Counted from the stretch's first letter, positions 1-51,421 are shown. The stretch is DNA of 64,000 bases from Escherichia coli (GCF_024700885.2 NZ_CP117016.1), one strand, 5' to 3'. Notes: generated by a model not told the origin, from the letters alone. A program made the numbers and translations.

Positions 1-18
1 CCGGAAAAATCAACCTTG

Positions 19-840
19 TTACCTAGTTACCTTTTTTAACTGCCGCTCAGCCCATGCTTCTTCAATATCAAACCGGGTCACCAGCGCATCATAGAATTTC
101 TTAACTGTTTTTTCCCATGACGCGCGTGTTATCTGGTTTGTCACCTCGCATATAGCATTAAATGCCTCCGTTGATGGTAGCCTTTCATAGCCACGACCAC
201 CACAACGCTGGCAGTCTCTGATAACAGGCATACCACGTTTTACCGACTCTTCACGATGAATGGCGACACCACGCCCACGGCAATCCTTACAGGCGGTGGA
301 AACCTCACCCTTCCCGCCACACTCCGGACAGGCAACTTTTACCACCTCCCTGACTTTTTTCCATTCTTCCCAGTAAGACGGATACACACCTTTCGTACAC
401 TTTGCCCATACCGGCGGCTTACCATCCGGATACTGGACCTTGTTTGTAAAAACTACGCTTTCAATAAATTTTTCCCCATAGCAACAAGGGCACAGCTTTT
501 TACTCGCTGCGCTGCGGGCATAATCCTCAAAAGCGCACGAAGCCATAATGCGCATCACTACCGGTTTTATTTCTGCCGGAAGTTTTCTCAACGCCGCCAC
601 ACGATCGCACCGACTGAGTGCATAATCTGCCAGTAATTCTGTTGCCCGCGCCCTGTCATTCATACTGATGCCCATCTTCCCCAGGAACGCAGAAAACCCC
701 ATCTCAGCCCGATTCTGTGTCATGCCCTGCGCGGCCATCACATCAGTGATACTCAGCGCATCTTTTGACGTTGAGGCCGATGCATCGGTCAGGCAAGGGG
801 ATTTTGGGGAGTAGTATTTCGGTAAATCTTCCAGTTTCAT
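19..840 (-). CDS. phage late-gene antitermination protein Q-like (QuuQ-type, zinc-finger)
   Basis: 273-aa ORF with repeated CxxCxGxG zinc-finger motifs (CPECGGKG, CKDCRGRG, CQRCGGRG); lies downstream of rusA and the DUF968 gene, the position of Q in lambdoid nin/late-control regions. Family call from memory. Confidence 0.55.
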   Translation of the reverse strand: MKLEDLPKYYSPKSPCLTDASASTSKDALSITDVMAAQGMTQNRAEMGFSAFLGKMGISMNDRARATELLADYALSRCDRVAALRKLPAEIKPVVMRIMASCAFEDYARSAASKKLCPCCYGEKFIESVVFTNKVQYPDGKPPVWAKCTKGVYPSYWEEWKKVREVVKVACPECGGKGEVSTACKDCRGRGVAIHREESVKRGMPVIRDCQRCGGRGYERLPSTEAFNAICEVTNQITRASWEKTVKKFYDALVTRFDIEEAWAERQLKKVTR

Positions 841-1211
841 TTTTTGACCTGCTCTTCATGCATTATGGGGTAAATCTTCACCCCCAGACGTCCACCAGAT
901 ACTGGCTGACCACGAACGATATTGATTTCATCAAACTGCTCATCGTCCATTAACACTCCCGCATGCGTCAGCGCATCCAGCGGTGCTTTCAGGATATTGT
1001 CCAGGTCGCGACGACGCTTATCCGGTGGCTCTGCAATCACCTTTATCGCCAGCCTTCCGGACAGGCTTAATTTCAGCCGCTGCTGGCGAACAATAAGCGC
1101 CACAGCACGGCGATAACGCTTTCCCTCCTCCGAGATAAAATATGTGCTGCCACGGCGTCGCCAGTAAGTGTTCACCGTCGGCGGGTAAGGTAAAACCAAA
1201 TCTATGAGCAT
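837..1211 (-). CDS. rusA: RusA-family Holliday junction resolvase
   Basis: 124-aa ORF with the RusA signature DKRRRDLDN and overall RusA-like pattern; start overlaps the upstream gene stop. Confidence 0.8.
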   Translation of the reverse strand: MLIDLVLPYPPTVNTYWRRRGSTYFISEEGKRYRRAVALIVRQQRLKLSLSGRLAIKVIAEPPDKRRRDLDNILKAPLDALTHAGVLMDDEQFDEINIVRGQPVSGGRLGVKIYPIMHEEQVKK

Positions 1212-1223
1212 CAGTCACCTCTT

Positions 1224-2273
1224 TTACCCAAGCACGCCAGTTGCAAAGGCGTGATCAAGAAAACGAAAAATTAAATCAACCTGAGAACCATGCTTTTCTT
1301 CGAACGCCAGCGGATCCGCATGAAGCTCGTTGTGATGCTCCCGACACAGCGGTAGCGTGAAAATATCGTGAGATTTTGTCCCCATTCCGCCCTGACCATG
1401 ACCAATCAGGTGATGGGGATCGTCGGCTGGCTTACCACAACACGCACACGGCTGTGTCTTCACCCAGCGTGTGTATTTCTCGTTAACCCAGCGGCGACGT
1501 TTAGGTCGTTTCATGAAAGATTCCGGAGACTCAGGATCAACGGCAATGCTGACCACCGTCTTTTCCTGTGGTGGGTTCTGTTGCTGGTGGGCGTGAGGCA
1601 GCGGCGCAAGATTTTTTGTGCGCTGTTTCAGTATGCTGGTGGCGGTCTGCTCTCCCGGTACGATGTCGCTTTCACGGTACATTGAGCGGATTTTTTCCGC
1701 ACGCAACCCCAGCGAACGACGTAATACCGCTTCCGGTAGCGCGTCCGCCACCTGATTGCGGACCGCCCACCAGGATAATTCAGCCAGAGATAATTCACGC
1801 TCCTGCGTACCGCTTATTGCGTGACCGATGACGTCAATCATCCATGCTGACAGGTTTTGATGAGCAACTTGCTCGAGTGATTCGGATGTCTGGTCACGCA
1901 GCTGGTTGTCGCAGTGCCAGCACAACACCATTGCGCCGGTACCATAACGGTGAATGACGGTTTCGCTGTGATGATAATCGCCGTGTGGCCACTGGCAGGA
2001 TTTAATATGGCGCAACAGCCAGTCAGACAATGCACCAGCACCACCAGCAGCACGAATCACCCGTGCGTTACTGAAAAACGGCAGCAATGTTTTGTCTTCC
2101 ACCAGCGGCTGGCGAGCGGCAGGAACGACCCCGGACGGCAGATTACGCATGCTTTTCGGTTCCGGCTCCACCAGTAACCGGGTATTGTGGAATACCGGCA
2201 TGGATTCACGGCCCGGCTTAACGATCACCAGCCCGAGTTCCGGTACCAGAACAGGTCGAAGTAATACCCGCAC
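1224..2273 (-). CDS. DUF968 (YdfU-like) prophage protein with C-terminal HNH-like Cys/His motif
   Basis: 349-aa ORF; C-terminus CACCGKPADDPHHLIGHGQGG...CREHHNELH resembles the HNH-like motif of the DUF968 family found next to Q in Qin-type prophages. Confidence 0.6.
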   Translation of the reverse strand: MRVLLRPVLVPELGLVIVKPGRESMPVFHNTRLLVEPEPKSMRNLPSGVVPAARQPLVEDKTLLPFFSNARVIRAAGGAGALSDWLLRHIKSCQWPHGDYHHSETVIHRYGTGAMVLCWHCDNQLRDQTSESLEQVAHQNLSAWMIDVIGHAISGTQERELSLAELSWWAVRNQVADALPEAVLRRSLGLRAEKIRSMYRESDIVPGEQTATSILKQRTKNLAPLPHAHQQQNPPQEKTVVSIAVDPESPESFMKRPKRRRWVNEKYTRWVKTQPCACCGKPADDPHHLIGHGQGGMGTKSHDIFTLPLCREHHNELHADPLAFEEKHGSQVDLIFRFLDHAFATGVLG

Positions 2274-2274
2274 G

Positions 2275-2664
2275 TTACCTCCAGATGCGTTGCTGGAATG
2301 TGCGGGATGGACGCGGTGGGCGTTCGGAGTAAGGCAATCTGACTGAGATTATCCAGTGACGGTAGTCGAGGCTAAGGGCTTTTTTAACCTCGTATCCGCG
2401 CCTGCGGTAACACTGAATTATCCATTCAGCCTGCTCTTCAGTGCATGGTGGATGCTGGAACCAGTCCGATTTGAATGCATGAAAACGCCGTCCGCACCTG
2501 CTGGCAAAGACGGCAGAATCATCAGAATTGTGTAATTTGGTATCGTGCGCCATCGGTTGTCTCTGCTGGCGCAGCAGGTGCCAGTTGTTCAGGCTGGCGT
2601 ATAAAGTATAAATAAACTGGTTCCAGTGTAAAGCCCCTACATTAATGGAATAAAAGTCAAACAA
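2275..2664 (-). CDS. hypothetical prophage protein (position of rem in Qin-like prophages); true start may be an internal Met
   Basis: 129-aa ORF directly upstream of and abutting the DUF968 gene; no recognisable motif. Confidence 0.3.
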   Translation of the reverse strand: MFDFYSINVGALHWNQFIYTLYASLNNWHLLRQQRQPMAHDTKLHNSDDSAVFASRCGRRFHAFKSDWFQHPPCTEEQAEWIIQCYRRRGYEVKKALSLDYRHWIISVRLPYSERPPRPSRTFQQRIWR

Positions 2665-2919
2665 CAGATTGTTGGGATAAACACAACGCTTATTATTAAA
2701 AGCGATTAGATAAATTAAATTTTAATGTTATGCAATTTTACCAGATCATCATAACATCTCGTTTGAAACCACCGAAACAACAACCATATCAATATTGATT
2801 ATGTTAAAGTGAGTAAATATGGAAAACAACAAATCTGCACATTACGCTCCTTTTTTATCTGTGATACTTTTTGTTTTATGCTGTGTGTGGGCATTATTTT
2901 TATAAAAATATTCACAGAT

Positions 2920-2943
2920 AAAATAAACCCGCCGAAGCGGGTT
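2920..2943 (-). terminator. rho-independent terminator at the 3' end of the hok transcript
   Basis: On the minus strand, hairpin AACCCGCTTCGGCGGGTT followed by a T-tract (plus strand aaaataaacccgccgaagcgggtt), about 70 nt downstream of the hok stop. Confidence 0.55.
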
Positions 2944-3011
2944 AAGTGCGGGTGCATTGAGGATGCCTGACACATCCGAGGTGGCGAGGGATTTCTCCCT
3001 CGCCGGGTCTC

Positions 3012-3167
3012 TTACTCCTCAGGTTCGTAAACTGTGAAGACAGCGACCTCCGTCTGGCCGGTTCGGATTCGTACCTCGCAGAGGTCTTTCCTCGTTACCA
3101 GTGCCGTCACTATGACGGTTAAACAGATGACGATCAGGGCGATTAACATCGCCTTTTGCTGCTTCAT
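3012..3167 (-). CDS. hok: Hok/Gef-family type I toxin (51 aa membrane peptide)
   Basis: Minus-strand ORF below the 60-aa cutoff of the ORF track; translation MKQQKAMLIALIVICLTVIVTALVTRKDLCEVRIRTGQTEVAVFTVYEPEE is essentially the HokD/Hok sequence as I recall it. Structured GC-rich 3' region and upstream leader present. Confidence 0.85.
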   Translation of the reverse strand: MKQQKAMLIALIVICLTVIVTALVTRKDLCEVRIRTGQTEVAVFTVYEPEE

Positions 3168-3424
3168 AGCCTGCTTCTCCTTGACCTTTCGGTCCGTAAG
3201 AGGCTAATCTCTATGTGTCGCATAGATATGGCCTCAGATTAATGTTAAACGTCTTGCAGGACGCGTAATGTTACCTGGGGCTTTTCTCTATCTGCCGTTG
3301 GTGTTCATGCCCGAGGCAGATAGCCTCAAGCACCCGCAGTCATTCTACTTAACTAAGATTTCCCCGCAAACCGTTTTTGTCCAGCACAATAAATATCCAA
3401 CTAAACCAATGGAGTTCGCTGTAT

Positions 3425-3604
3425 TTACCGCCAGTATTCAATGCACATGACCGCCATGAACACCCCTAAAAAAAGGGCATTTATATATCCAAATATTAAT
3501 ATCAAAACATCAACTTTTTCCATATACCTTGCTGTGAAGATGATGGGCATACATGATACGAACAACCAGAACGCAACAAACAAAAACTGCAATGCGTTTT
3601 TCAT
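3425..3604 (-). CDS. hypothetical small hydrophobic (membrane) protein
   Basis: 59-aa ORF from internal Met (MKNALQFLFVAFWLFVSCMPIIF...) in an AT-rich stretch; two predicted hydrophobic segments; no family assignment. Confidence 0.3.
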   Translation of the reverse strand: MKNALQFLFVAFWLFVSCMPIIFTARYMEKVDVLILIFGYINALFLGVFMAVMCIEYWR

Positions 3605-4144
3605 TATTCCTCCTACAATCAATGTGCAATTACATTTAAACACACCTCAATTTGGCCGGACATATAAATATCTAAACTAGAAAAAATCACTTACATAGCG
3701 TTACAAACTCTTTAGTCTAAAGGTTCATCGTAAAACATTCCCCATACTTATCAGTCCGTTCCGCGCCAGGTAGCTTATTGCCTTATCTGGCAACCTATAA
3801 TCAGGTTTCCGCTTTTTCAGTTGGCTGGTCGTTTAACCGACATAGTTAACCCATTAATCTAGTTGCCGGATGTTGGTGGATTTTCGCGTTTTAGTTGTTC
3901 ATAAAAGTGCACAGCTTTAACCAGTTCTTCTGATGTAACCAGGGCTGGTGAGGCAGTGAATAAGGCCTGAATTTGATAGTTCGGCCTGTCGTTACAATCC
4001 TCTTTTTTCGGTACATATTTCCAGTCAACAGACCACTACTTCTCCTGAAAGTCCGTAACGCCTTTTTTCACGTAGCGATATCGCCATGCCACTGGTTTTG
4101 CTTGCCCCGCCGTTTCATACCCTTCCTGATAATTAATCTCGCTC

Positions 4145-4319
4145 ATTCATCGCCCCACTCATCACAATATGCTTCGACCGGATTTTTTCCTGCTTCATAA
4201 TCATCACGCCATGCTTCAGCATCAGCAGCACTGCCACCACGTAACTCTGCATAGTCCATTAACAGTTCATGCCATTTTTCAAAACTGACGTTGTATTTAG
4301 TTGAACCAAAATCAGCCAT
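4145..4319 (-). CDS. hypothetical small acidic protein (58 aa)
   Basis: ORF MADFGSTKYNVSFEKWHELLMDYAELRGGSAADAEAWRDDYEAGKNPVEAYCDEWGDE; start overlaps the stop of the upstream 60-aa ORF; below the ORF-track cutoff. Confidence 0.3.
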
Positions 4320-4494
4320 TTTGCTCTTCCTCTTCGTCTTTTATTTCGTGATATGAGTAATTGCAGTAGTTAAAGAAAATACCTTTTGCTTCGTCATGTA
4401 TTTCATCAGGCGTCGCATCAGCATCCACTTCGAATTCATCCTCGAAATCTCCACCAGCCATTCCCGTTTCAATAATTATTTTGAACTTTCGCAT
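4312..4494 (-). CDS. hypothetical small highly acidic protein (60 aa)
   Basis: ORF rich in D/E (GDFEDEFEVDADATPDEIHDE...DEEEEQ); translationally coupled to the next small ORF. Confidence 0.3.
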   Translation of the reverse strand: MRKFKIIIETGMAGGDFEDEFEVDADATPDEIHDEAKGIFFNYCNYSYHEIKDEEEEQNG

Positions 4495-5001
4495 TTCACT
4501 ACCGCCCTTTCGGGTGGCCTCCTGCTGTTCTGAGGGTGCAGAAATCCCTCCGGTTAAGGATTAAATTTTTAACAGTGCTAAATTTAATTATTCAGTTTTG
4601 GATTTTGTCACCCTGCGTATCCGCGCTTTCCCGTTACGCTCAATCTGAATTAGCTTTTCTATATTTTTTCGCCTTTCCCGTTCCTCCTGGCGCAAGAGCC
4701 TTACATCATCTGCCAGTCTGGTTTCTCTTTTCGCCACAGAGAGCATCCAGTCAAATGGCTCCACAACTGCACCGCAGATTTTACAGCGGACCTGACGCTC
4801 TTTTTCGTCAACCCGGACAGAAGCGTGATGGCAATATGGTCTTTCCGATGGCTCATAAAGAAAATTAACCTGATTACGAGGGTCATCCTCTTTTATCGGA
4901 AATAAAACGATATTGCTTAACTAATCCTCTGGTTTTATTTCCATGCTCCTCTCCTTTGATGCGAATGCCAGCGGCAATTGAAGCCTGATAGCTAATTTCA
5001 C

Positions 5002-5424
5002 TCACAGTACCGCCTCCTGAAAATTACCCTGATAGAAAGCCAGTACACGCTGCATAGCTTCGCTCTTCCGGCACTCGCGACAGATTATATTCAGGCGCCT
5101 GTCGTAGCGGCGTATTTCTCCGTCTGGTAATGACCAGATTAGGTCCGGATCAACCGCAGATGGTTTCTTCGGCTTTGCCCTTGAGAGCTTTTTACGGGCA
5201 TTTTGCCAGTCCTTACGCGCCTGTTCAGACGGGAATAACCCGTAACCAGAGTTGTATACATCGCCACTGGCAACCAGCTCTCTGGCCAGAACGCTCATCA
5301 GATATCTTGTTGCCCCAGTTTTAGTTTCCAGTCGTCGTAACGTCTCGCGCCCACTCTGGCGTACGAGTTCAACAACCTGCCCTTTAATTTTTTCCCGCTC
5401 TTCTTGTGTAAAAACTTTTGCCAC
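5002..5424 (-). CDS. hypothetical prophage protein (140 aa)
   Basis: ORF immediately downstream of the replication gene in the same operon orientation; basic, with a CRECRK motif; no confident family. Confidence 0.4.
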   Translation of the reverse strand: MAKVFTQEEREKIKGQVVELVRQSGRETLRRLETKTGATRYLMSVLARELVASGDVYNSGYGLFPSEQARKDWQNARKKLSRAKPKKPSAVDPDLIWSLPDGEIRRYDRRLNIICRECRKSEAMQRVLAFYQGNFQEAVL

Positions 5425-5464
5425 AAGCCCTCCTGAAAATTACCTCATGACCAGAAATTAACAC

Positions 5465-6541
5465 TTACCCCCTGAAGCCCGGCGGAATTTCGTTATCCGG
5501 TTCAGAAATATGATTCACACAACGCTGGTTGTTCGTGCCGCTTACCGGGAGCAACCAGGGGTTCTCAAAATTCCGGTCCGGTCCAAAAAACGTCGTCGCT
5601 CGCTGAACAAATTCCGTTCCCGTTTTCCCGGTAGCCGCCAAGTATCTTGCGTAACGCCTCACGCCATCCAGCATGGCCTCTGGTGGCACCCCCTCGCGTA
5701 ATCTGGCCTTCCAGGCACTGAAAGCGGATTTCTTCGGGTTTGCTCCGGCACGCAACGGGTACTCCCGCCAGACCTGTTCGAACACATCCGGATAATCCAC
5801 TCGTCCCACAGACTGCCCGGTGTTTTCCGGGACTACCCGATCGGCTTCCCGCTGAATGGCGGAATCGGCTTCGGGCTGCTGCAGTTGGTGTGATTGCTCC
5901 GGCCTTGCGGTCATCACCTGCTGCACAGCGCCCGAATCGGCTTTCAGCGCATACGCTGAATCGGCTTCCGGTGTCGTGCCTGCTGGCTGACCAAGATTGA
6001 CGGTCTGAACATCCCCTGCCTGGTTCGTGGCGTTTTTTACGCCATGGACCATAGTGTTTTGATCTTCTTGATCTGTATCTTTATCTGTATCTTTATCTGT
6101 CGTGACTCGTCGTGACATGTGCGTGACATTTCGTGACGCGCCGTGACAATCGCCATTTTGTTCCCGCTTTCTTTCCCTCTCTCGCTGCGCCCTCTTGCGC
6201 TCTGCAGGAGATTTTGCGGTTTGCGAAATATTGCCGTTGTCCTCTTTAAGCACCTGGCGTTTTTCCCATCCAGTGATTAAATCACCATCAAGTACCCGCC
6301 CCTGCATCGTCTGCAAAATTGAATCAATTACCTCTTCTGTCACGTCGAGCGCACTTGCCAAATCTTCTGTCGTGACATCAATGTGACCTCGCGTGACATT
6401 TCGTGACGCGCTCACCAGGAGGTGGATATACACTGCCATCACTGTTGCAATTGGCTGCCCTGACACCCTGGCAATTGTTCGCCACTTAGGGTCATTTGGC
6501 ATGTCATGCCATAATCTGAGCCAGGCGTTAGCCATACTCAC
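5465..6541 (-). CDS. putative phage replication initiation protein (lambda O-like / YdaU DUF1376-like)
   Basis: 358-aa ORF downstream of the cro-like and YdaT-like genes; embeds two arrays of CGTGAC repeats at about 10-bp spacing, as lambda ori lies within O; contains a DKDTDKDTD linker repeat. Confidence 0.6.
   Translation of the reverse strand: MSMANAWLRLWHDMPNDPKWRTIARVSGQPIATVMAVYIHLLVSASRNVTRGHIDVTTEDLASALDVTEEVIDSILQTMQGRVLDGDLITGWEKRQVLKEDNGNISQTAKSPAERKRAQRERERKREQNGDCHGASRNVTHMSRRVTTDKDTDKDTDQEDQNTMVHGVKNATNQAGDVQTVNLGQPAGTTPEADSAYALKADSGAVQQVMTARPEQSHQLQQPEADSAIQREADRVVPENTGQSVGRVDYPDVFEQVWREYPLRAGANPKKSAFSAWKARLREGVPPEAMLDGVRRYARYLAATGKTGTEFVQRATTFFGPDRNFENPWLLPVSGTNNQRCVNHISEPDNEIPPGFRG
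6101..6147. repeat. iteron-like array: 5 x CGTGAC at 10-11 bp spacing (candidate phage ori)
   Basis: CGTGAC at 6101, 6111, 6122, 6132, 6142; preceded by tandem 12-bp repeat atctgtatcttt at 6071-6100. Confidence 0.55.
6371..6407. repeat. second iteron-like array: 4 x (C/T)GTGAC at 10-11 bp spacing
   Basis: Repeats at 6371, 6382, 6392, 6402; shares an identical 20-bp block gcgtgacatttcgtgacgcg with the first array (6121-6140 vs 6391-6410). Confidence 0.55.
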
Positions 6542-6606
6542 CTCTTTTGATACCGAATCTTTTTACTCACAAATTGCCGGAAGTGATCCGGTATGAATAT
6601 TGCGAG

Positions 6607-7032
6607 TCAATGCACAGCCACAATATTTCCTGCAGGGCCACCACGATTCATCTGGTTGAAACCAGCGATCGCCACTGCGACAAAATCATCAGCGTCTCTC
6701 ACCAGTCGTTCCCGCGTCTCCACTAGTTCCCGAAAATAGGCTGAGCTATGACTGCGCATTCGGGCCACCAGCAGAGGTGGCATTGCTTTTTCGATAGCTG
6801 GTAACAACGCCTGAATTTTTTTAACCGCATCAGGGGTGTCTTTCTCCACCCAGCGGAAAATTTTCTGAGTATTGCGAGCCAGGGCTTCCGGATGGCTGTC
6901 GTCATACAGTTCCGGGAACGTCATTCCCAGCTCGAAATACGCTTTGGTAATTTTCACAGCCGGTACTTTTTCGCCGTCCGGATGCGCCCAGGCATTCATC
7001 GCCATGCGGATGTGTTCATGCTTGATTTTCAT
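6607..7032 (-). CDS. YdaT-like prophage protein
   Basis: 141-aa ORF MKIKHEHIRMAMNAWAHPDGEKVP... matching my recollection of Rac YdaT; follows the cro-like gene with ATGA overlap. Confidence 0.6.
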   Translation of the reverse strand: MKIKHEHIRMAMNAWAHPDGEKVPAVKITKAYFELGMTFPELYDDSHPEALARNTQKIFRWVEKDTPDAVKKIQALLPAIEKAMPPLLVARMRSHSSAYFRELVETRERLVRDADDFVAVAIAGFNQMNRGGPAGNIVAVH

Positions 7033-7283
7033 GAATCAACTCCCATCAGCTTTTTCGTAGTAGTTTTATTCCTGCCAATAGTTAAAATTGCATCGGCAGA
7101 AAATAATCCGTTTGATGCAAGAGCGATTTTTTCAGCGTAATTTGTTTCGCCGGTATATTCTGTGCGAGGCAATTTTCCGTTATCCATCCATTTATAGATT
7201 GCTCTTTGGCTGACACCACAAACGTCGGCCACAACAGCAACGCGAACAGTTTTGATTACATCTTCAAGTGTTTTCTGGTTCAT
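7029..7283 (-). CDS. Cro-like / YdaS-like HTH regulator
   Basis: 84 aa from internal Met (MNQKTLEDVIK...); HTH-like segment VCGVSQRAIYKWM; divergent from the DicA-like repressor gene. Start chosen to leave a 79-bp operator region. Confidence 0.55.
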   Translation of the reverse strand: MNQKTLEDVIKTVRVAVVADVCGVSQRAIYKWMDNGKLPRTEYTGETNYAEKIALASNGLFSADAILTIGRNKTTTKKLMGVDS

Positions 7284-7362
7284 ATCACCCTCACAATGTG
7301 AACTTTGAGTACATGCTATAACAGAACTGACAGTACATTCAAGAGCGAATATCATTGAACTT

Positions 7363-7782
7363 ATGGTTCATGAAGATAAAGCGCGTAAAGAGTTCGCCAG
7401 TAGGCTTGCGCTAGCCTGTGAAAACGCTGGTTATGAACAACATGGAAGGCAGGCAGAAATTGCCCGTCGAATGAAATTAACACCAAAAGCGGTTAGCAAA
7501 TGGTTTAATGGCGAAACAATTCCTCGCCGGGAGAAATTAAGGGAATTAGCAACACTAATAGGAACAACACCAACCTATCTTTTGGGAGAGGATACAGAAG
7601 AAAGTGGACAGGTACGTTTCTATCAGGAGTTAAATCCAAGACAAAAAATCATCATTGACCTTCTGGACGAGCTCCCTGACAGTGAGACAGATGAACTTTT
7701 AAAAACTCTTGAAGAGAAAAAACAGAAGTACAATGCAATTTACGAAGAGTTAGCACGAAAGAAAAAACAAAAAGCCTCTTAA
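7363..7782 (+). CDS. DicA/RacR-like XRE-family HTH repressor (immunity repressor)
   Basis: 139-aa ORF with N-terminal HTH and acidic C-terminal helix; heads the ydfABC-dicF-dicB module as dicA does in Qin. Confidence 0.6.
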   Translation: MVHEDKARKEFASRLALACENAGYEQHGRQAEIARRMKLTPKAVSKWFNGETIPRREKLRELATLIGTTPTYLLGEDTEESGQVRFYQELNPRQKIIIDLLDELPDSETDELLKTLEEKKQKYNAIYEELARKKKQKAS

Positions 7783-8079
7783 ACCAGCATAAATCCGGTA
7801 GCGCCTTCCTCCGGGTTTGTGCTTCACTTTATCCCATCTCATTTTTTTACACACAAAATGTACTAAAAGTACTTTACAACAATGAACGCAAAGTACATTA
7901 TATACCTACCACCCACCCCGCCCCACAGAATGCAGGGCAATACTTCGAGTTACCAGGCAGTGGTCAGGGGTTAAGTAGCCAGCCCGAGGCGTAAGAACAT
8001 GACGGCAGGGTTCAACTTTAATAACTATGCAGCAGGTTTTTGTTCCGCTACCCCGGCGTTAAGGGGAAATGAGGTCAGC

Positions 8080-8235
8080 ATGGATACTATCGATCTTGGC
8101 AACAACGAATCTCTGGTGTACGGCGTGTTTCCCAACCAGGACGGCACCTTCACCGCAATGACGTATACCAAAAGCAAAACGTTTAAAACCGAATCTGGAG
8201 CGCGTCGCTGGCTGGAAAGAAATTCAGGTGGGTGA
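8080..8235 (+). CDS. ydfA: YdfA-like small prophage protein
   Basis: 51-aa ORF MDTIDLGNNESLVYGVFPNQDGTF... with good SD (aaggggaaatgagg); matches my recollection of Qin YdfA. Confidence 0.55.
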   Translation: MDTIDLGNNESLVYGVFPNQDGTFTAMTYTKSKTFKTESGARRWLERNSGG

Positions 8236-8236
8236 T

Positions 8237-8368
8237 ATGGATTTCGACACAATCATGGAAAAGGCTTACGAAGAATACTTCGAAGGCCTTGCCGAAGGCG
8301 AAGAAGCTCTCAGCTTCAGCGAATTTAAACAGGCGCTTTCCAGTTCGGCAAAATCTAACGGCTGATAA
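8237..8368 (+). CDS. ydfB: YdfB-like small prophage protein
   Basis: 43-aa ORF MDFDTIMEKAYEEYFEGLAEGEE... immediately after ydfA (1-bp gap). Confidence 0.5.
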
Positions 8369-8394
8369 GCGAAACAGCACCGCGAGGAATCAGC

Positions 8395-8613
8395 GTGCAG
8401 AAACGAGAACCCGTCATCATCGCGCCAGACTATACCGATGATGAACTTTATGAGTGGATGCGCCAGAAAATTAATGCAGCGCAGGATCTGAAATGGGCTA
8501 ATGAAGCCAGGGCTAAGCAGGCTGAAAATCTGTCCGCTCTGGAGCAGGATATCACCAATCTGGAAAAAGCAGCGGCATTAAGCATTGCCAGAATGATTAC
8601 ATACCCGCGTTAG
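8395..8613 (+). CDS. ydfC: YdfC-like prophage protein
   Basis: 72-aa ORF MQKREPVIIAPDYTDDELYEWMRQKINAAQDLKWANEARAKQ...; order ydfA-ydfB-ydfC as in the Qin dicB operon. Confidence 0.55.
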   Translation: MQKREPVIIAPDYTDDELYEWMRQKINAAQDLKWANEARAKQAENLSALEQDITNLEKAAALSIARMITYPR

Positions 8614-8954
8614 TAGCTAATCAACAAAGCTAAGGTTAGTAATTAAGGAGTTCTCCACGGGTGAGGTGGAGTGCGTGCGCCGGACACGGGTGAGCATCCG
8701 GCACTGACAGTTTACTGAAAGGATATTTCCCTGAAAAGTCAGACCATAACGCGAAAGCGCACGGCGAGGTAGCTGGTTCATAGATAGCCTGTCGTTAAAT
8801 TTTCGTCGACCGTGCGCTTCCGGTTGTGGCAATCCGCGAAATGGCGCGGCGGTAAGTATGGCGGGGTTATTCCTTCCCCCGTTGAGGACACCGGGTTGTC
8901 AGGTTGACCATACGCTTAAGTGACAACCCCGCTGCAACGCCCTCTGTTATCAAT

Positions 8955-9007
8955 TTTCTGGTGACGTTTGGCGGTATCAGTTTTACTCCGTGACTGCTCT
9001 GCCGCCC
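8955..9007 (+). ncRNA. dicF: DicF small RNA (ftsZ-targeting sRNA processed from the dicB operon transcript)
   Basis: 53-nt stretch tttctggtgacgtttggcggtatcagttttactccgtgactgctctgccgccc followed by TTTTT; matches the DicF sequence as I recall it and sits between ydfC and dicB. Confidence 0.75.
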
Positions 9008-9181
9008 TTTTTAAAGTGAATTTTGTGATGCGGTGAATGCGGCTAAGCGCACGCGGAACAGTTAAAACCAAAAACAGTGTTATGGGTGGATTCTCTGTAT
9101 CCGGCGTTAATTGTTAACTGGTTAACGTCACCTGGAGGCACCAGGCACCGCATCACAAAACTCATTGTTGAGGGCGCGATA

Positions 9182-9370
9182 ATGAAAACGTTATTACCAA
9201 ACGTTAATACGTCTGAAGGTTGTTTTGAAATTGGTGTCACTATCAGTAATCCTGTATTTACTGAAGAGGCCATTAACAAAAGAAAACACGAACGGGAGTT
9301 ATTAAATAAAGTATGCATTGTTTCAATGCTGGCCCGTTTACGTCTGATGCCAAAAGGATGTGCACAATGA
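9182..9370 (+). CDS. dicB: cell-division inhibitor DicB
   Basis: 62-aa product MKTLLPNVNTSEGCFEIGVTISNPVFTEEAINKRKHERELLNKVCIVSMLARLRLMPKGCAQ is near-identical to DicB as I recall it. Confidence 0.85.
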   Translation: MKTLLPNVNTSEGCFEIGVTISNPVFTEEAINKRKHERELLNKVCIVSMLARLRLMPKGCAQ

Positions 9371-9558
9371 ATCCAGTATTTGCACTTATTCTGACGGTTT
9401 TTCTTGTTTCCGGAGAGCCAGTTGATATTGCAGTCAGTGTTCACAGAACAATGCAGGAATGTATGGCAGCAGCAACCGAACAGAAAATTCCAGGCAACTG
9501 TTATCCGGTCGATAAAGTTATTCACCAGGATAATAACGAAATCCCGGCAGGATTTTAA
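9367..9558 (+). CDS. ydfD: YdfD-like small protein with N-terminal hydrophobic segment
   Basis: 63-aa ORF MNPVFALILTVFLVSGEPVDIAV...; ATGA overlap with dicB stop. Confidence 0.65.
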   Translation: MNPVFALILTVFLVSGEPVDIAVSVHRTMQECMAAATEQKIPGNCYPVDKVIHQDNNEIPAGF

Positions 9559-9651
9559 AACAGCACCGTAATAAATATCCAGTTTCATTCTTATATGTCA
9601 GCAATGGCAGAGATTTGTTCACCCTTAAATCTGTGATGAGGTTTATCAATA

Positions 9652-12093
9652 ATGAGCACTGATAAAGAAGAATTTGCACTATATTGCGAAGCAAAAAATG
9701 ACAAAGTAAGAAAACGCCTAGGAATTAAAGGTGGTTTTTACTGGACTACAGCAAAAAAATTATCTGTTGCAATCTCCCGCTGCATTACCGCAATGGATGA
9801 CAACGATTATGATGAAGACGACTTTAAAAAACCCGTCCGCGTCAATTTGCCCGTTGTTGACGACCTTCCGCCAGAAGGCGTGTTTGATACTGAATTCTGC
9901 AACCGCTATGAAAAAGGCGGGAAAGATGGCATCACAATGACATTTATCGGCCCTTCCCCCTCTGTTCAGGACAAATCAGCCAGCACTGATAATACCAACA
10001 TCAACGGCGAAGACATGACTGAGATTGAGGAGAGCATGCTTCTACCTGTCTCCGGTCAGGAACTGCCCATTCGTTGGCTTGCTCAACACGGCAGCGAAAA
10101 ACCAGTAACGCACGTTTCACGCGACGAACTCCAGGCATTACACATTGCACGGGCTGAAGAACTACCGGCTGTTACTGCCCTGGCTATTTCGCATAAAACC
10201 AGTCTGCTCGACTCGCTGGAGATTCGCGACCTCCACAAACTGGTTCGTGACACTGACAAAGTTTTCCCTAATCCTGGTAATTCAGACCTGGGACTAATAA
10301 CTGCTTTTTTCGAAGCATACCTGGACGCTGACTACACTGATCGGGGTCTGCTGACAAAAGAGTGGATGAAAGGAAATCGTGTTTCACGCATCACCCGCAC
10401 GGCTTCCGGTGCTAATGCTGGCGGTGGGAACAAAACCGATCGCAGTCCGAATTTAGTACACACCCTCGACACACTGGATGTGGAGATTGCAGCAGCCACA
10501 CTTCCGATGGATTTTAATATTTATGAAATTCCGGGCAGCGTTTATCGTCGCGCAAAAGAAGTAGTCCTGAAAAAAGAAAGTCCGTTCAAAGAATGGTCCG
10601 CAGCACTTCGTGCAACCCCGGGTATTCTGGACTATTCCCGCGCCGCTATTTTTGCACTTATCCGAAGCGCACACCCTGAATTTTATCACTACCCGGGACG
10701 CCTTCAGGGGTATATCAACGCCTATTTGACGGAAACTGATCACGAGAACCCCAGCAAGGAAACTCTCACAGCTGCCCGGCATACGCCGGAAAAAGATATC
10801 CTGGAAGAAATTAACCGCGAGGTGGTTACTGAGCGTGAAACAGAAGAAGAAAAACCACAACCATCTGACGCAATGGCAGGTGAACAGGCAACAACTGAAA
10901 CAATGGAACCGGATACAACTGAACATTGCCAGAACGCGCAGTCGCTGGATGCTCAGTCGCAGGTGAGTTCCGCTAACCAAGTAAAAGTCACCGCTGACGA
11001 AGTAAACAAAATTATGCAGGCAGCCAATATCAGCCAGCCTGACGCCGATAAGTTACTTGCTGTATCGCGTGGTGAATTTGTTGAGGGGATTAGCGACCCT
11101 AATGATCCGAAATGGGTCAAGGGGATCCAGACTCGCGATTCTGTGAACCAGAACCAGCATGAATCGGAACGGAACGACCAAAAAGCGGAACAAAACAGCC
11201 CAAATGCGTTACAAAACGAGCCAGAAACGAAACAATCCGAACCAGTAGCGCAACAGGAACCGGAAAAAGTCTGCACCGCCTGCGGTCAGAGCGGTGGCGG
11301 CAACTGCCCTGATTGTGGCGCGGTGATGGGCGACGCAACATACCAGAAAACATTCGATGAAGAGAATCAGGTTGAAGTTCAGGAAAATGATCCGGAGGAA
11401 ATGGAAGGCGCTGAACATCCACACAAGGAGAATGCTGGCAGCGCTCAGGACCACGCCAGCGATAGTAAAACTGGCGAGACGGCAGATCCCTTAATTACGG
11501 TGAATGGTCATCACGAAATCACATCCACCAGCAGGACGTGTGACCATCTAATGATCGACCTTGAAACCATGGGAAAAAATCCTGATGCCCCGATCATCTC
11601 AATAGGTGCAATATTTTTCGATCCGCAAACCGGAGATATGGGACCGGAATTTAGTAAGACTATCGATCTGGAAACTGCTGGCGGAGTCATTGATCGGGAC
11701 ACCATTAAATGGTGGCTTAAGCAATCACGCGAAGCGCAATCTGCCATTATGACCGATGAAATCCCGTTAGATGATGCACTGTTACAATTGCGGGAATTTA
11801 TCGACGAAAACTCCGGTGAATTTTTTGTTCAGGTCTGGGGAAATGGAGCCAACTTCGACAACACGATTTTGCGCCGTTCATACGAACGGCAGGGGATCCC
11901 CTGCCCGTGGCGTTACTACAACGATCGCGATGTACGCACAATCGTTGAGCTGGGGAAAGCCATAGACTTCGATGCCAGAACGGCTATTCCATTCGAAGGT
12001 GAGCGCCATAATGCACTTGATGACGCTCGTTACCAGGCAAAATACGTTTCAGCTATCTGGCAAAAACTGATCCCGAGTCAGGCTGATTTTTAA
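9652..12093 (+). CDS. YdfE-like large prophage protein with C-terminal DEDDh (DnaQ-like) 3'-5' exonuclease domain
   Basis: 813-aa ORF; the C-terminal ~190 aa carry exonuclease motifs (MIDLETMG..., ...[13 protein letters not shown]..., ...HNALDDAR); preceded by an acidic low-complexity linker and a Cys4 zinc ribbon (CTACG...CPDCG); in the ydfE position between ydfD and xis. Confidence 0.6.
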
Positions 12094-12151
12094 TGTTCAA
12101 CCCTGATCGCCGCTAACCGCATATAGTTAGCGGCGGTTATGAGATATAGCT

Positions 12152-12355
12152 ATGAGCAGCTTATTTTTAACCGAAGATGAATTGCTAATATTAACGGGCT
12201 GCAAATATGCAAGCCACCAGCGAAAATGGTTAATGGAAAACGGGCTTCCGTTCTATACCAATCGTAGTGGCAAACCGATTGTCAGCCGGGATCTATTTAC
12301 CTGCAATAAAACTTTACCACCACGCGAGGTAGAGCCGAATTTTGGTGCGATCTGA
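12152..12355 (+). CDS. xis: excisionase (Xis-like)
   Basis: 67-aa ORF immediately upstream of and overlapping (ATGA-type) the integrase start. Confidence 0.6.
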   Translation: MSSLFLTEDELLILTGCKYASHQRKWLMENGLPFYTNRSGKPIVSRDLFTCNKTLPPREVEPNFGAI

Positions 12356-13380
12356 TGGGAAGACGAAGGAAAAATCCTGAACACGAAAAATTACCTCCAA
12401 ATGTATACCCAAATAAATATAGTTATGTATGGAAACCAACATCCAGAGAATCTGTAACACTAACCGCCATCAAGGATGGTTTAGCTGCTTTATGGAAAAA
12501 GTATGAGGAAACTGTAAATAATCGCGATCGTGCAATGACATTCGGTCGCTTGTGGGAAAAATTCCTCGCCAGCGCCTGTTACAGTGACCTTAGCCCAAGA
12601 ACACAAAAAGATTATCTGCAACATCAAAAAAAGTTGCTTGCCGTATTCGGTAAGGTACCAGCGGATTCCATAAAACCAGAACACATCCGTCGATACATGG
12701 ACAAAAGAGGGGAACAGAGCAAAACGCAAGCCAACCATGAAAAAAGCAGTATGTCCCGCGTTTACAGTTGGGGATATGAGCGAGGGTACGTGAAGGTTAA
12801 CCCATGTGCAGGTGTAAGTAAATTCAAGGCCAAAAACCGCGAACGATATGTAACCGACAAAGAATACCAGGCAGTATTAAGCGTTGCACCTCTTCCTGTT
12901 TTTATCGCAATGGAAATTGCCTATCTGTGTGCAGCGAGGGTTTCCGATGTGTTATCGCTGAAATGGGAGCAGATTGGAAACGACGGGATCTTTATCCAGC
13001 AAGGGAAAACAGGGAAAAAACAGATAAAAGCATGGAGTCCACGATTACAGGCGGCGATCGAAAAAGCAAAACAGTTACCAACATCCGCCTATGTAATCAG
13101 CAATCAATACGGCAACCGATATATGTACAAAGGCTTTAACGAAATGTGGGTAGAAGCAAGAAATCGCGCAGGCAAAATTTCAGGTATTTTAACCGACTTC
13201 ACCTTTCATGATCTGAAGGCGAAAGGAATTTCAGACTATGAAGGAAGCAGTCGGGATAAGCAACTTTTCTCTGGTCACAAAACCGAGGGGCAAGTGCTAA
13301 TCTATGACAGGAAGGTTAAAGTTTCACCGACACTTGATGTCCCGTTACCTGAAAATATTCCAAGAAAATATTCCAAGTAA
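12355..13380 (+). CDS. int: lambda-family tyrosine integrase
   Basis: 341-aa ORF starting MGRRR... like lambda Int; transcribed toward the tRNA-Ser 3' end, which lies 52 bp downstream. Confidence 0.85.
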   Translation: MGRRRKNPEHEKLPPNVYPNKYSYVWKPTSRESVTLTAIKDGLAALWKKYEETVNNRDRAMTFGRLWEKFLASACYSDLSPRTQKDYLQHQKKLLAVFGKVPADSIKPEHIRRYMDKRGEQSKTQANHEKSSMSRVYSWGYERGYVKVNPCAGVSKFKAKNRERYVTDKEYQAVLSVAPLPVFIAMEIAYLCAARVSDVLSLKWEQIGNDGIFIQQGKTGKKQIKAWSPRLQAAIEKAKQLPTSAYVISNQYGNRYMYKGFNEMWVEARNRAGKISGILTDFTFHDLKAKGISDYEGSSRDKQLFSGHKTEGQVLIYDRKVKVSPTLDVPLPENIPRKYSK

Positions 13381-13432
13381 TTCCAAGTGTGATTTTTGTC
13401 ACTGACTTAATGATGTATAAGTGATTGAATTT

Positions 13433-13522
13433 TGGCGGAGAGAGGGGGATTTGAACCCCCGGTAGAGTTGCCCCTACTCCGGTTTTCGAGACCGGTCCGT
13501 TCAGCCGCTCCGGCATCTCTCC
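13433..13522 (-). tRNA. serU: tRNA-Ser (anticodon CGA)
   Basis: Reverse complement reads GGAGAGATGCCGGAGCGGCTGAACGGACCGGTCTCGAAAACCGG...CTCTCTCCGCCA, a 90-nt class II tRNA with anticodon CGA and encoded CCA. Confidence 0.9.
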
Positions 13523-14750: not shown

Positions 14751-16013
14751 ATATCCCTTACCGACGCAAAAATCCGCACCCTCAAGCCTTCTGATAAACC
14801 CTTTAAAGTCTCCGATTCTCACAGTCTGTATCTGCGGGTCAAGCCGGGTGGCTCCCGCCACTGGTATCTCAAATACCGTATTAGCGGTAAAGAATCCCGC
14901 ATTGCGCTGGGTGCCTATCCAGCCATCTCCCTGTCTGATGCGCGACAGCAACGTGAAGGTATCCGTAAAATGCTGGCGCTGAATATCAACCCGGTACAGC
15001 AGCGGGCTGCTGTACGTGGCTCACGAACACCGGAGAAAGTTTTTAAAAACGTGGCGCTGGCGTGGCATAAAAGTAACAGGAAATGGTCGCAGAACACCGC
15101 CGACCGTCTGCTTGCCAGCCTGAACAATCACATCTTTCCGGTCATCGGGAACCTACCTGTATCAGAACTTAAACCCCGTCATTTCATTGACCTGCAGAAA
15201 GGGATCGAGGAAAAAGGTCTGCTGGAGGTTGCGTCCCGCACACGGCAGCACCTGAGTAACATAATACGCCATGCGGTCCATCAGGAGTTAATCGATACGA
15301 ACCCTGCAGCAAACCTTGGCGGCGTGACCACACCTCCTGTCAGACGGCACTATCCTGCCCTGCCGCTGGAGCGGCTGCCTGAACTGCTTGAACGTATTGG
15401 GGCATATCATCAGGGCCGTGAACTGACCCGGCATGCCGTTCTGCTGATGCTGCATGTGTTCATTCGCTCCAGTGAACTGCGTTTCGCCCGCTGGTCAGAG
15501 ATTGATTTCACAAACCGAGTCTGGACGATACCCGCGACGCGAGAACCCATTATTGGCGTGCATTATTCCGGCCGCGGGGCAAAAATGCGAATGCCGCATA
15601 TCGTCCCCCTCTCAGAACAGTCCATCGCCATTCTGAAACAGATTAAGGATATCACCGGTAATAATGAACTGATCTTCCCCGGCGACCATAACCCGTATAA
15701 GCCAATGTGTGAAAACACGGTCAATAAGGCACTGCGGGTGATGGGTTACGACACGAAAAAGGATATCTGCGGTCACGGCTTCCGGGCAATGGCATGCAGT
15801 GCGCTGATGGAATCGGGTTTATGGGCAAAGGACGCAGTAGAACGCCAGATGAGTCATCAGGAGCGCAATACCGTGCGCATGGCTTATATTCATAAGGCAG
15901 AGCACCTGGAAGCCCGCAAAGCGATGATGCAGTGGTGGTCGGATTATCTGGAAGCATGCCGAGAATCTTATGCACCGCCTTATACAATTGGTAAAAATAA
16001 GTTTATCCCATAG
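14751..16013 (+). CDS. int: P4-family tyrosine integrase of the High-Pathogenicity Island; no canonical start codon in frame
   Basis: Frame open from stop at 14733 to 16013; in-frame N-terminal region ...SLTDAKIRTLKPSDKPFKVSDSHSLYLRVKPGGSRHWYLKYRISGKESRIALGAYPAIS... is the P4-type arm-binding domain, but there is no ATG/GTG/TTG before the Met at 14970 (codon 14751-14753 is ATA). The 5' coordinate is therefore uncertain. Confidence 0.75.
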   Translation: MSLTDAKIRTLKPSDKPFKVSDSHSLYLRVKPGGSRHWYLKYRISGKESRIALGAYPAISLSDARQQREGIRKMLALNINPVQQRAAVRGSRTPEKVFKNVALAWHKSNRKWSQNTADRLLASLNNHIFPVIGNLPVSELKPRHFIDLQKGIEEKGLLEVASRTRQHLSNIIRHAVHQELIDTNPAANLGGVTTPPVRRHYPALPLERLPELLERIGAYHQGRELTRHAVLLMLHVFIRSSELRFARWSEIDFTNRVWTIPATREPIIGVHYSGRGAKMRMPHIVPLSEQSIAILKQIKDITGNNELIFPGDHNPYKPMCENTVNKALRVMGYDTKKDICGHGFRAMACSALMESGLWAKDAVERQMSHQERNTVRMAYIHKAEHLEARKAMMQWWSDYLEACRESYAPPYTIGKNKFIP

Positions 16014-45606: not shown

Positions 45607-45882
45607 GTGGCTTCTGTTTCTATCAGCTGTCCCTCCTGTTCAGCTACTGACGGGGTGGTGCGTAACGGCAAAAGCACCGCCGGACATCAGCGCTATCTCT
45701 GCTCTCACTGCCGTAAAACATGGCAACTGCAGTTCACTTACACCGCTTCTCAACCCGGTACGCACCAGAAAATCATTGATATGGCCATGAATGGCGTTGG
45801 ATGCCGGGCAACTGCCCGCATTATGGGCGTTGGCCTCAACACGATTTTACGTCACTTAAAAAACTCAGGCCGCAGTCGGTAA
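45607..45882 (+). CDS. insA: IS1 InsA
   Basis: 91-aa product [24 protein letters not shown]... (GTG start), the zinc-finger InsA. Confidence 0.88.
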
Positions 45883-46304
45883 CCTCGCGCATACAGCCGG
45901 GCAGTGACGTCATCGTCTGCGCGGAAATGGACGAACAGTGGGGCTATGTCGGGGCTAAATCGCGCCAGCGCTGGCTGTTTTACGCGTATGACAGGCTCCG
46001 GAAGACGGTTGTTGCGCACGTATTCGGTGAACGCACTATGGCGACGCTGGGGCGTCTTATGAGCCTGCTGTCACCCTTTGACGTGGTGATATGGATGACG
46101 GATGGCTGGCCGCTGTATGAATCCCGCCTGAAGGGAAAGCTGCACGTAATCAGCAAGCGATATACGCAGCGAATTGAGCGGCATAACCTGAATCTGAGGC
46201 AGCACCTGGCACGGCTGGGACGGAAGTCGCTGTCGTTCTCAAAATCGGTGGAGCTGCATGACAAAGTCATCGGGCATTATCTGAACATAAAACACTATCA
46301 ATAA
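45801..46304 (+). CDS. insB: IS1 InsB reading frame (expressed as InsAB' by -1 frameshift)
   Basis: 167-aa ORF overlapping the insA 3' end in the -1 frame. Confidence 0.8.
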
Positions 46305-51345: not shown

Positions 51346-51421
51346 TGGCTCCTCTGACTGGACTCGAACCAGTGACATACGGATTAACAGTCCGCCGTTC
51401 TACCAACTGAACTACAGAGGA
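51346..51421 (-). tRNA. asnW: tRNA-Asn (GUU), variant copy with one D-loop substitution
   Basis: Reverse complement is identical to the other three Asn tRNAs except AGTTGGTAG instead of AGTCGGTAG in the D-loop. Confidence 0.93.

Follow-up and report, generated by a model that had tools for sequence, protein, structure and literature searches.

Gene content and boundaries of the serU element

The first 13.5 kb of a stretch of Escherichia coli DNA of 64,000 nucleotides (the window) hold the early arm of a lambdoid prophage inserted at the tRNA-Ser gene serU. From position 1 towards serU, this arm carries the late antiterminator gene Q, a nin region with a hok/sok locus, genes for replication and immunity, the block from ydfA to ydfD that includes dicF and dicB, and the genes of an exonuclease, an excisionase and an integrase (Table 1). 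This gene content and order had been listed by a sequence-only reading of the window, and the three routes of gene calling agree with it: the RefSeq annotation of NZ_CP117013.1, PHROG profiles for 20 open reading frames (ORFs) and Rfam. The first 14 kb of the window are 100% identical to the minus strand of the chromosome of E. coli MLI114 (NZ_CP117013.1), an isolate of an extended-spectrum beta-lactamase (ESBL) study from human stool in Mali. About 60 other complete genomes match this 14 kb at 99.8 to 99.9% identity, and only 60 genomes share at least 80% of the arm; these and all further genome counts refer to a set of 5,426 complete E. coli genomes. The arm is ordinary, being a new combination of known modules and not a new kind of element.

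The 3' end of serU faces int, and its last 62 nucleotides (nt) form the core of the attachment (att) site. The proposal that a lambdoid early, nin and Q arm is integrated at serU hinged on a repeat of this end elsewhere on the chromosome, and we found a single further exact copy of the 62 nt, located 44,419 bp to the left. An empty-site construct of 786 bp, in which a single core joins the 318 bp preceding the left copy to the 292 bp following the right copy, matched 4 genomes without interruption at 100% identity; at a coverage of at least 80%, it was present in 3,855 of the 5,426 genomes. Since there are two exact cores and the joining of the flanks recreates an empty site, the element is a precisely integrated prophage of 44.4 kb, with serU rebuilt from the core borne by the phage. 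Its entry into the 3' end of serU would have occurred by site-specific recombination. The element shows the features typical of prophages, with int and xis beside att, a duplicated core, and an empty site in other strains. Furthermore, it contains no insertion sequence (IS), unlike the copies in three of the genome matches (H10 to H12), and int, xis and the replication gene are all full length, as expected from the earlier remark that no frameshift was visible in them. The serU gene is a documented locus of lambdoid integration, where modules are often replaced, and the junction xis-int-serU-mtfA is found in 1,091 of the complete genomes, including O157:H7 (94.3% identity).

The phage continues past position 1, as anticipated, with a complete late region. 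Left of the window, the MLI114 chromosome encodes, in this order, tRNA-Ile, tRNA-Arg, IraM, a lysis cassette (holin, YdfR, lysozyme and Rz), a segment running from the terminase to J and the tail fibres, and a diguanylate cyclase with a gene of low guanine-plus-cytosine (GC) content. The late genes follow the order of lambda (Nu1, A, W, B, C, D, E, FI, FII, Z, U, V, G, T, H, M, L, K, I, J and tail fibres), none of the structural genes is flagged as a pseudogene in RefSeq, and 97% of this 23-kb structural region is covered by phages 2G7b and PhiR63_1 at 96.8 to 97.0% identity. The 12-mer of the lambda cosN site and its lambda flank are present without a mismatch just upstream of the small terminase gene. 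Having Q before a lysis cassette and a head and tail operon in lambda order with a cos site, the element is lambdoid.

In our reading, which has a probability of about 0.85, a complete mosaic lambdoid prophage of 44.4 kb lies in the 3' end of serU in MLI114, and positions 1 to 13494 of the window are its early half. It may still be active. Several points weigh against this reading. RefSeq flags int as frameshifted and extends it to 13405, and the second catalytic arginine of lambda Int (R311) is a lysine (K288) in this integrase. The pseudogene in the nin region was counted as a genuine lesion, and RefSeq annotates a few more pseudogenes or fragments among the accessory genes. In Q, rusA, int/xis and the late genes, the prophage departs from Tritos, a phage relative described below, so that this particular combination may or may not be viable. 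Finally, the operators, origin, arm sites and promoters are putative assignments based on sequence patterns, and the promoter-like matches were no commoner than in shuffled sequence, so that the promoter calls are consistent with the model and do not count as evidence for it.

Table 1. Features of the early arm, in window coordinates
Feature	Position	Strand	Support or remarks
Late antiterminator Q, 273 aa	19-840	minus	phrog_127 Q-like, E 6.5e-109, full length; RefSeq "antitermination protein"
RusA Holliday-junction resolvase	837-1211	minus	phrog_34, E 5.8e-56; RefSeq
DUF968 / YdfU-like HNH protein	1224-2273	minus	phrog_96, E 8.7e-175
Small hypothetical protein, 92 aa	2275-2553	minus	phrog_1212, unknown function
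hokD toxin gene	3012-3167	minus	phrog_251, E 2.8e-32
sok antisense RNA region	3165-3335	minus	Rfam RF01794, 100.8 bits (gathering 59)
nin-region pseudogene	3725-4146	minus	Frameshift and internal stop; RefSeq, stop codons on translation
Four small nin ORFs	4143-4319, 4312-4494 (DUF7167), 4588-4911, 4883-5005	minus	PHROGs of unknown function; RefSeq
DUF977 protein	5002-5424	minus	phrog_142 (PHROG "Ren-like exclusion"), E 1.3e-47
Replication initiator, 356 aa	5465-6535	minus	phrog_3729, residues 1-356/356, E 5e-258; RefSeq "hypothetical"
Candidate replication origin (ori)	6066-6407		Inside the replication-initiator gene; repeat pattern
YdaT-family protein	6607-7032	minus	phrog_163 CII-like activator, E 1.8e-44; RefSeq "YdaT family"
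Putative YdaT operator, perfect TTGATT-N6-AATCAA	7022-7039		cro/ydaT junction; sole zero-mismatch match in 64 kb
cro-like helix-turn-helix (HTH) regulator	7029-7283	minus	phrog_35; RefSeq
Right-operator-like (OR-like) sites, three approximate ATGTAC-N5-GTACAT	7298-7371		Between cro and the repressor gene
Repressor, 139 aa	7363-7782	plus	Pfam HTH_3 and HTH_31 only; DicA-like architecture
Left-operator-like (OL-like) sites, two, one mismatch each	7858-7898		Just downstream of the repressor gene
ydfA, ydfB, ydfC	8080-8613	plus	RefSeq; PHROGs
DicF small RNA	8956-9007	plus	Rfam RF00039, 76.7 bits (gathering 48), model 1-52/52; between ydfC and dicB
dicB	9182-9370	plus	RefSeq; phrog_1251, full length
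ydfD	9367-9558	plus	RefSeq; phrog_1092, full length
Exonuclease, 813 aa	9652-12093	plus	Pfam; phrog_607
Excisionase (xis), DUF4224, 67 aa	12152-12355	plus	phrog_1266, E 3e-21
Lambda-family tyrosine integrase (int), 341 aa, ST64B-type, serU-targeting	12355-13380	plus	
Candidate arm-type Int-binding sites	13351-13387	plus	Two GAAAATATTCCAA units and AATTCCAAG, overlapping the int stop codon
att core	13433-13494		Exact 62-bp repeat, the 3' 62 nt of serU
serU, tRNA-Ser(CGA)	13433-13522	minus	ARAGORN; Rfam tRNA, 57 bits

Integrase and phage attachment site

The integrase aligns to residues 1 to 338 of lambda Int, from the arm-binding N terminus (MGRRR...LPPN.Y) through the catalytic region, and R195, K218, H285, H308 and Y317 are conserved. 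It shares 58 to 59% identity with the integrases of ST64B (Salmonella) and KpF5 (Klebsiella) and 51% with that of ZF40 (Pectobacterium), all of which have the same catalytic motifs, including HDLKAKG. K288 is invariant in these three proteins, which suggests a trait of the subfamily and not a lesion. The sequences of the subfamily diverge only past the SPTLD motif, and the length of the C-terminal tail differs among ST64B, KpF5 and ZF40. Apart from their int-attP modules, these phages bear no relation to the early arm described here.

The end of int is also where the frameshift flag arises. The 13-bp unit GAAAATATTCCAA occurs twice at positions 13351-13376, overlapping the int stop codon, and its copy number varies: there are two copies here (Int of 341 aa) and three in two other assemblies (L011 and L012, around 1397-1435 in each), which encode the rarer Int of 360 aa. 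This polymorphism accounts for the flag. A "repaired" Int of 345 aa, with one 13-bp unit removed as RefSeq does, did not occur among the roughly 15 billion proteins of a large collection. The exact 341-aa Int falls in a cluster of 1,013 members, where most of the listed full-length members have 341 aa, and one 341-aa variant was seen on 205 contigs. With the 345-aa form absent and the 341-aa form abundant, we rejected the frameshift; on sequence comparison, what RefSeq flagged is a naturally variable C-terminal tail.

As in other ST64B-type modules of the phage attachment site (attP), the core, the 3' end of a tRNA-Ser gene, is found past a set of repeated arm motifs, about 50 bp from int on its downstream side. 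The motif WATTCCAAG has 6 copies in 113 kb, three of them at 13356-13387 and two just inside the other end of the prophage, so that five of the six lie no more than about 110 bp from one or the other core. This clustering suggests that they are arm-type Int sites. Int, together with Xis for excision, would act on the 62-bp core and on these sites in both arms. The attP of ST64B and KpF5 is organized as here, with the int stop codon, short arm repeats, a spacer GTCACT...TAAGTG.TTGAAT and a tRNA-Ser core that ends in ...TTTTCGAGACCG and stops at the same base. The arm repeats are TTTTCTCA-like in these two phages and ATTCCAAG here, and the core of ZF40 differs in sequence.

A variable-copy putative arm-site unit lying over the int stop codon is the slightly unusual point of this prophage. 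A single slippage of GAAAATATTCCAA changes together the number of such sites in attP and the tail of Int (341 or 360 aa), and this variable tail begins just after the catalytic tyrosine. The equivalent tail of lambda Int modulates its activity. That the repeat works as a switch tuning the efficiency of integration and excision in a very common family of E. coli prophages is nevertheless a long shot.

Two further observations concern the core. The serU alleles differ by a compensatory pair at 13464/13475, which is A/T in both cores of this prophage and G/C in vB_EcoS-689R5 and in the assemblies L011 and L012; by its position, the pair should fall in the long variable arm of the tRNA. In addition, an imperfect similarity between phage and bacterial DNA (ATAAGT.ATTGA) extends about 16 to 20 bp past the 3' end of the tRNA, at 13417-13432 and, in a region of MLI114 left of the window (L002), at 31702-31720. 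The alignment of K-12 DNA with the window starts at 13417, and KpF5 and ST64B keep this spacer in their attP, suggesting that the functional core may exceed the 62-bp exact repeat.

Relatives, immunity and replication

The arm had been described as Qin/Kim-like, which is true of some modules only. It shares with the Qin prophage of K-12 the order Q, ydfU, hokD and, further on, cro-type gene, repressor, ydfA-B-C, dicF, dicB, ydfD, exonuclease and int. At the DNA level, the two are similar in ydfU (85% identity), hokD (98%) and the ydfA-ydfD/dicBF block (96.6% over 1.6 kb) and nowhere else, with no homology to Qin across 3181-8042 or beyond 9643, so that immunity, replication, exonuclease and int fall outside the likeness. 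The repressor called DicA-like has the HTH-only architecture of DicA and 29% identity to it (E 5e-15), and the cro-like protein shows no similarity to DicC. Likewise, the exonuclease described as ydfE-like takes the position of that gene but has no detectable similarity to the YdfE fragment of K-12. Qin itself is a 20-kb remnant at ydfJ/rspB, with pseudogenized intQ and ydfE and an IS2, whereas this element is complete and lies at serU; the Rem, relBE and csp genes of Qin are not in this arm. Judged by sequence, it has the dicBF operon downstream of the repressor that marks the Qin lineage and lacks the DicA/DicC specificity, Rem, and the IntQ-type integration at ydfJ/rspB.

The nearest relative of the early region as a whole module, by sequence, is Tritos, prophage 3 of the adherent-invasive E. 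coli strain LF82 (OV696610.1). Positions 5019-9656 of the window are 96.8% identical to it in one continuous block, which contains the genes of the DUF977 protein, the replication initiator, YdaT, Cro and the 139-aa CI, followed by ydfA-B-C, dicF, dicB and ydfD; in Tritos, too, the DUF977 gene adjoins the replication gene. Matches to Tritos extend to the ydfU region (90.6%), to hokD (93.8%) and, in the exonuclease gene, to the 3' half (96.3%). In Tritos, however, Q is different and rusA is lacking, and there is an ImmA/IrrE-like gene and other nin cargo absent here. Its 1,281-bp integrase and its excisionase differ, and its att site is therefore presumably different. Among GenBank entries, vB_EcoS-689R5 and its relatives match more of the arm than Tritos does; being PHASTER predictions, they say nothing on activity. 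We discarded the vB_Eco* "phages" as evidence of activity, as these predicted prophages include host genes such as mtfA.

The late region has other affinities. It resembles that of 2G7b, PhiR63_1 and Perceval-type phages and not that of Tritos: 2G7b, PhiR63_1, ev207, Perceval and lambda cover 83 to 97% of the region from terminase to tail fibres at 95 to 97% identity, while carrying other early regions and integrases. Prophages at serU in Shiga toxin-producing E. coli carry type III secretion effectors or stx and have different early modules.

The immunity region is organized as in lambdoid phages, with divergent repressor and cro genes and predicted operator repeats flanking the repressor gene. 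Matches to the pattern ATGTAC-N5-GTACAT concentrate there, since 6 of the 18 in the window fall within 7298-7907 (610 bp). The OR-like sites overlap a promoter-like site at 7327-7355 and the OL-like sites another at 7873-7901, a candidate driver of the operon from ydfA to int; the promoter-like hexamers under the operators face the repressor gene and the ydfA operon. From these flanking operators, the HTH-only repressor would maintain lysogeny, silencing in one direction the cro-ydaT-replication-Q operon and in the other the ydfABC-dicF-dicB-ydfD-exo-xis-int operon. TTGATT-N6-AATCAA is the operator motif of YdaT (PMC9986795). Its perfect match at the cro/ydaT junction has the position expected of a CII-type establishment promoter reading to the repressor gene, and YdaT, as the equivalent of CII, would act at this site to drive repressor establishment.

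The replication gene probably contains the origin. An AT-rich 12-bp unit repeated three times in tandem (6066-6101) is followed by five CGTGAC iterons with a phase of 10 to 11 bp (6101-6142). A further cluster, at a distance of 270 bp (6371-6402), has three exact CGTGAC sites and one TGTGAC variant. Eight of the 20 plus-strand CGTGAC sites of the 64-kb window are found between 6066 and 6407. By analogy with the ori of lambda, which lies inside gene O, this segment is a likely origin, and replication would start at the iterons within the initiator gene. The DNA repeats of the ori region are mirrored as peptide motifs (VTxx and DKDTD) in the initiator protein. The replication protein, the DUF977 protein, Q and Int matched no NCBIfam family above cut-off.

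Induction, cargo and surroundings

The 139-aa repressor has no S24 peptidase domain in Pfam, unlike self-cleaving CI repressors, and would thus be unable to cleave itself. DicA has been described as devoid of the Ala-Gly cleavage bond (PMC10448788). A LexA box (CTGT-N8-ACAG) was not found in the early arm; the single one of the late region sits inside the tape-measure gene, which corresponds to the chance frequency, and a tblastn search revealed no homolog of Rem in the 46-kb assembled prophage. With an HTH-only repressor, no LexA box and no Rem found, induction by mitomycin C is doubtful and spontaneous induction is more likely; mitomycin C may thus be the wrong inducer for this prophage. Induction would probably be spontaneous (bistable) or triggered in trans, and not by the classical SOS response. 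This matches Tritos, its near-identical and homoimmune-looking relative in the early region, which is released spontaneously, was shown by imaging to be a siphovirus, and gives plaques on MG1655 hsdR-.

An exclusively trans-acting trigger is one way in which a competent prophage could be induced, the antirepressor (Gifsy type or Rem type) of another prophage inactivating the short repressor. Short repressors of the DicA type give way to antirepressors such as Rem, the Gifsy antirepressors can be encoded on other prophages, and none was found in cis here. Lambdoid prophage DNA is common in these genomes, where the 14-kb query matches a median of 3 places per genome. However, the 29% identity of the repressor to DicA is too low to presume Rem specificity, and Tritos is produced spontaneously with no known partner, which leaves this explanation on the improbable side.

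Slightly less probable still is a cryptic, immobilized Qin-like remnant, unable to excise or to make particles and kept for its cargo of dicBF, hok/sok, IraM and dgcX. Such a remnant would agree with the annotation of int as frameshifted and of several accessory genes as pseudogenes or partial genes in RefSeq, with a repressor that has no cleavage domain, and with the lack of a detected LexA box or antirepressor. The O157:H7 genome with the 94.3%-identical xis-int-serU-mtfA junction points the same way, as we take its serU prophage to be Sakai Sp14/CP-933U. Sakai Sp14 was excised weakly and was not packaged. In contrast, both att cores of the MLI114 prophage are identical, and its Int is full length through the catalytic tyrosine and is the majority allele. 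The cosN site is exact, isolated phages match the whole lambda-type late region at 97% identity, and no structural gene is flagged as a pseudogene. IS insertions, present in the copies of matches H10 to H12, are missing, and the immunity and replication module is held in common with the plaque-forming Tritos. A classical SOS-inducible prophage, with mitomycin C acting through RecA-stimulated cleavage of the repressor or through a LexA-controlled antirepressor, is very unlikely: many lambdoid prophages are of this type and the related vB_EcoS-689R5 has a longer repressor gene (645 bp) at the same position, but the repressor here has 139 aa, only an HTH and the architecture of DicA, the sole LexA box of the late region is at chance level with none in the early arm, no Rem homolog was found, and induction by ciprofloxacin has been reported for Gally and Cyrano and not for Tritos.

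Read as a complete lambdoid prophage, the element is a natural and apparently intact counterpart of the cryptic Qin, with the dicBF operon for cell division and phage exclusion still within a whole phage, whose int/xis, replication, lysis and lambda-type virion genes look functional. It could help to find out which roles dicF and dicB have in the life cycle of an actual phage and to study how noncleavable repressors of the DicA type are switched off. Its significance is modest, as every module has close relatives in known phages.

Genes affecting the host are found in the window (hok/sok) and just outside it (those of IraM and the diguanylate cyclase DgcX). A Hok-family gene with an overlapping sok RNA makes the former a type I toxin-antitoxin system. 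Between the lysis cassette and Q, the usual position of morons in lambdoid phages, a region of MLI114 left of the window (L010, positions 341-1846, just left of Q) encodes tRNA-Ile, tRNA-Arg, a DUF3927 protein and the anti-adaptor IraM. The diguanylate cyclase gene (L010, 29219-30550, minus strand) is flanked by the tail-fibre genes and the left att core and has a GC content of 29.6%, compared with 50.4% for the prophage. It encodes a 443-aa GGDEF protein with a membrane sensor and the motifs RxxD and GGEEF, is 99.5% identical to the copy in E24377A, and is present in 770 of the 5,426 genomes. E24377A carries dgcX, a very highly expressed cyclase gene associated with a prophage (PMC4287979).

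The 813-aa exonuclease combines, in Pfam, an Exonuc_VIII N-terminal region with an Rv2179c-like DEDD 3'-5' exonuclease domain. RecE has a C-terminal 5'-3' nuclease domain and is paired with a recT gene. The exonuclease of this arm matches only the noncatalytic N-terminal part of Exonuc_VIII, and no recT-like gene is present in the RefSeq annotation of the arm; it is not a RecE nuclease by these features. In the nin region, the 92-aa protein is not a homolog of Rem (tblastn with Rem gave nothing better than E 0.3). Three unannotated ORFs (3425-3643, 2799-2975 and 3891-4028) had no PHROG match. The first of them, on the minus strand between sok and the nin pseudogene, would encode 72 aa with hydrophobic stretches in DNA of low GC content (about 41 to 43%), and may be a small membrane-protein moron or no gene at all.

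To the right of the prophage, mtfA alone separates it from asnT, which is accompanied by a P4-type integrase gene (14751-16013) and by the yersiniabactin high-pathogenicity island. The prophage is thus one gene away from this island in an isolate of an ESBL study, which matters for the biology of the strain and is not new in kind. The island runs from ybtS to fyuA (fyuA at 43015-45036), with an IS1 at its end (45607-46304). The whole stretch from asnT through the yersiniabactin genes spans positions 14514-46304 of the window, and three more tRNA-Asn genes are located at 51346, 53170 and 55578.

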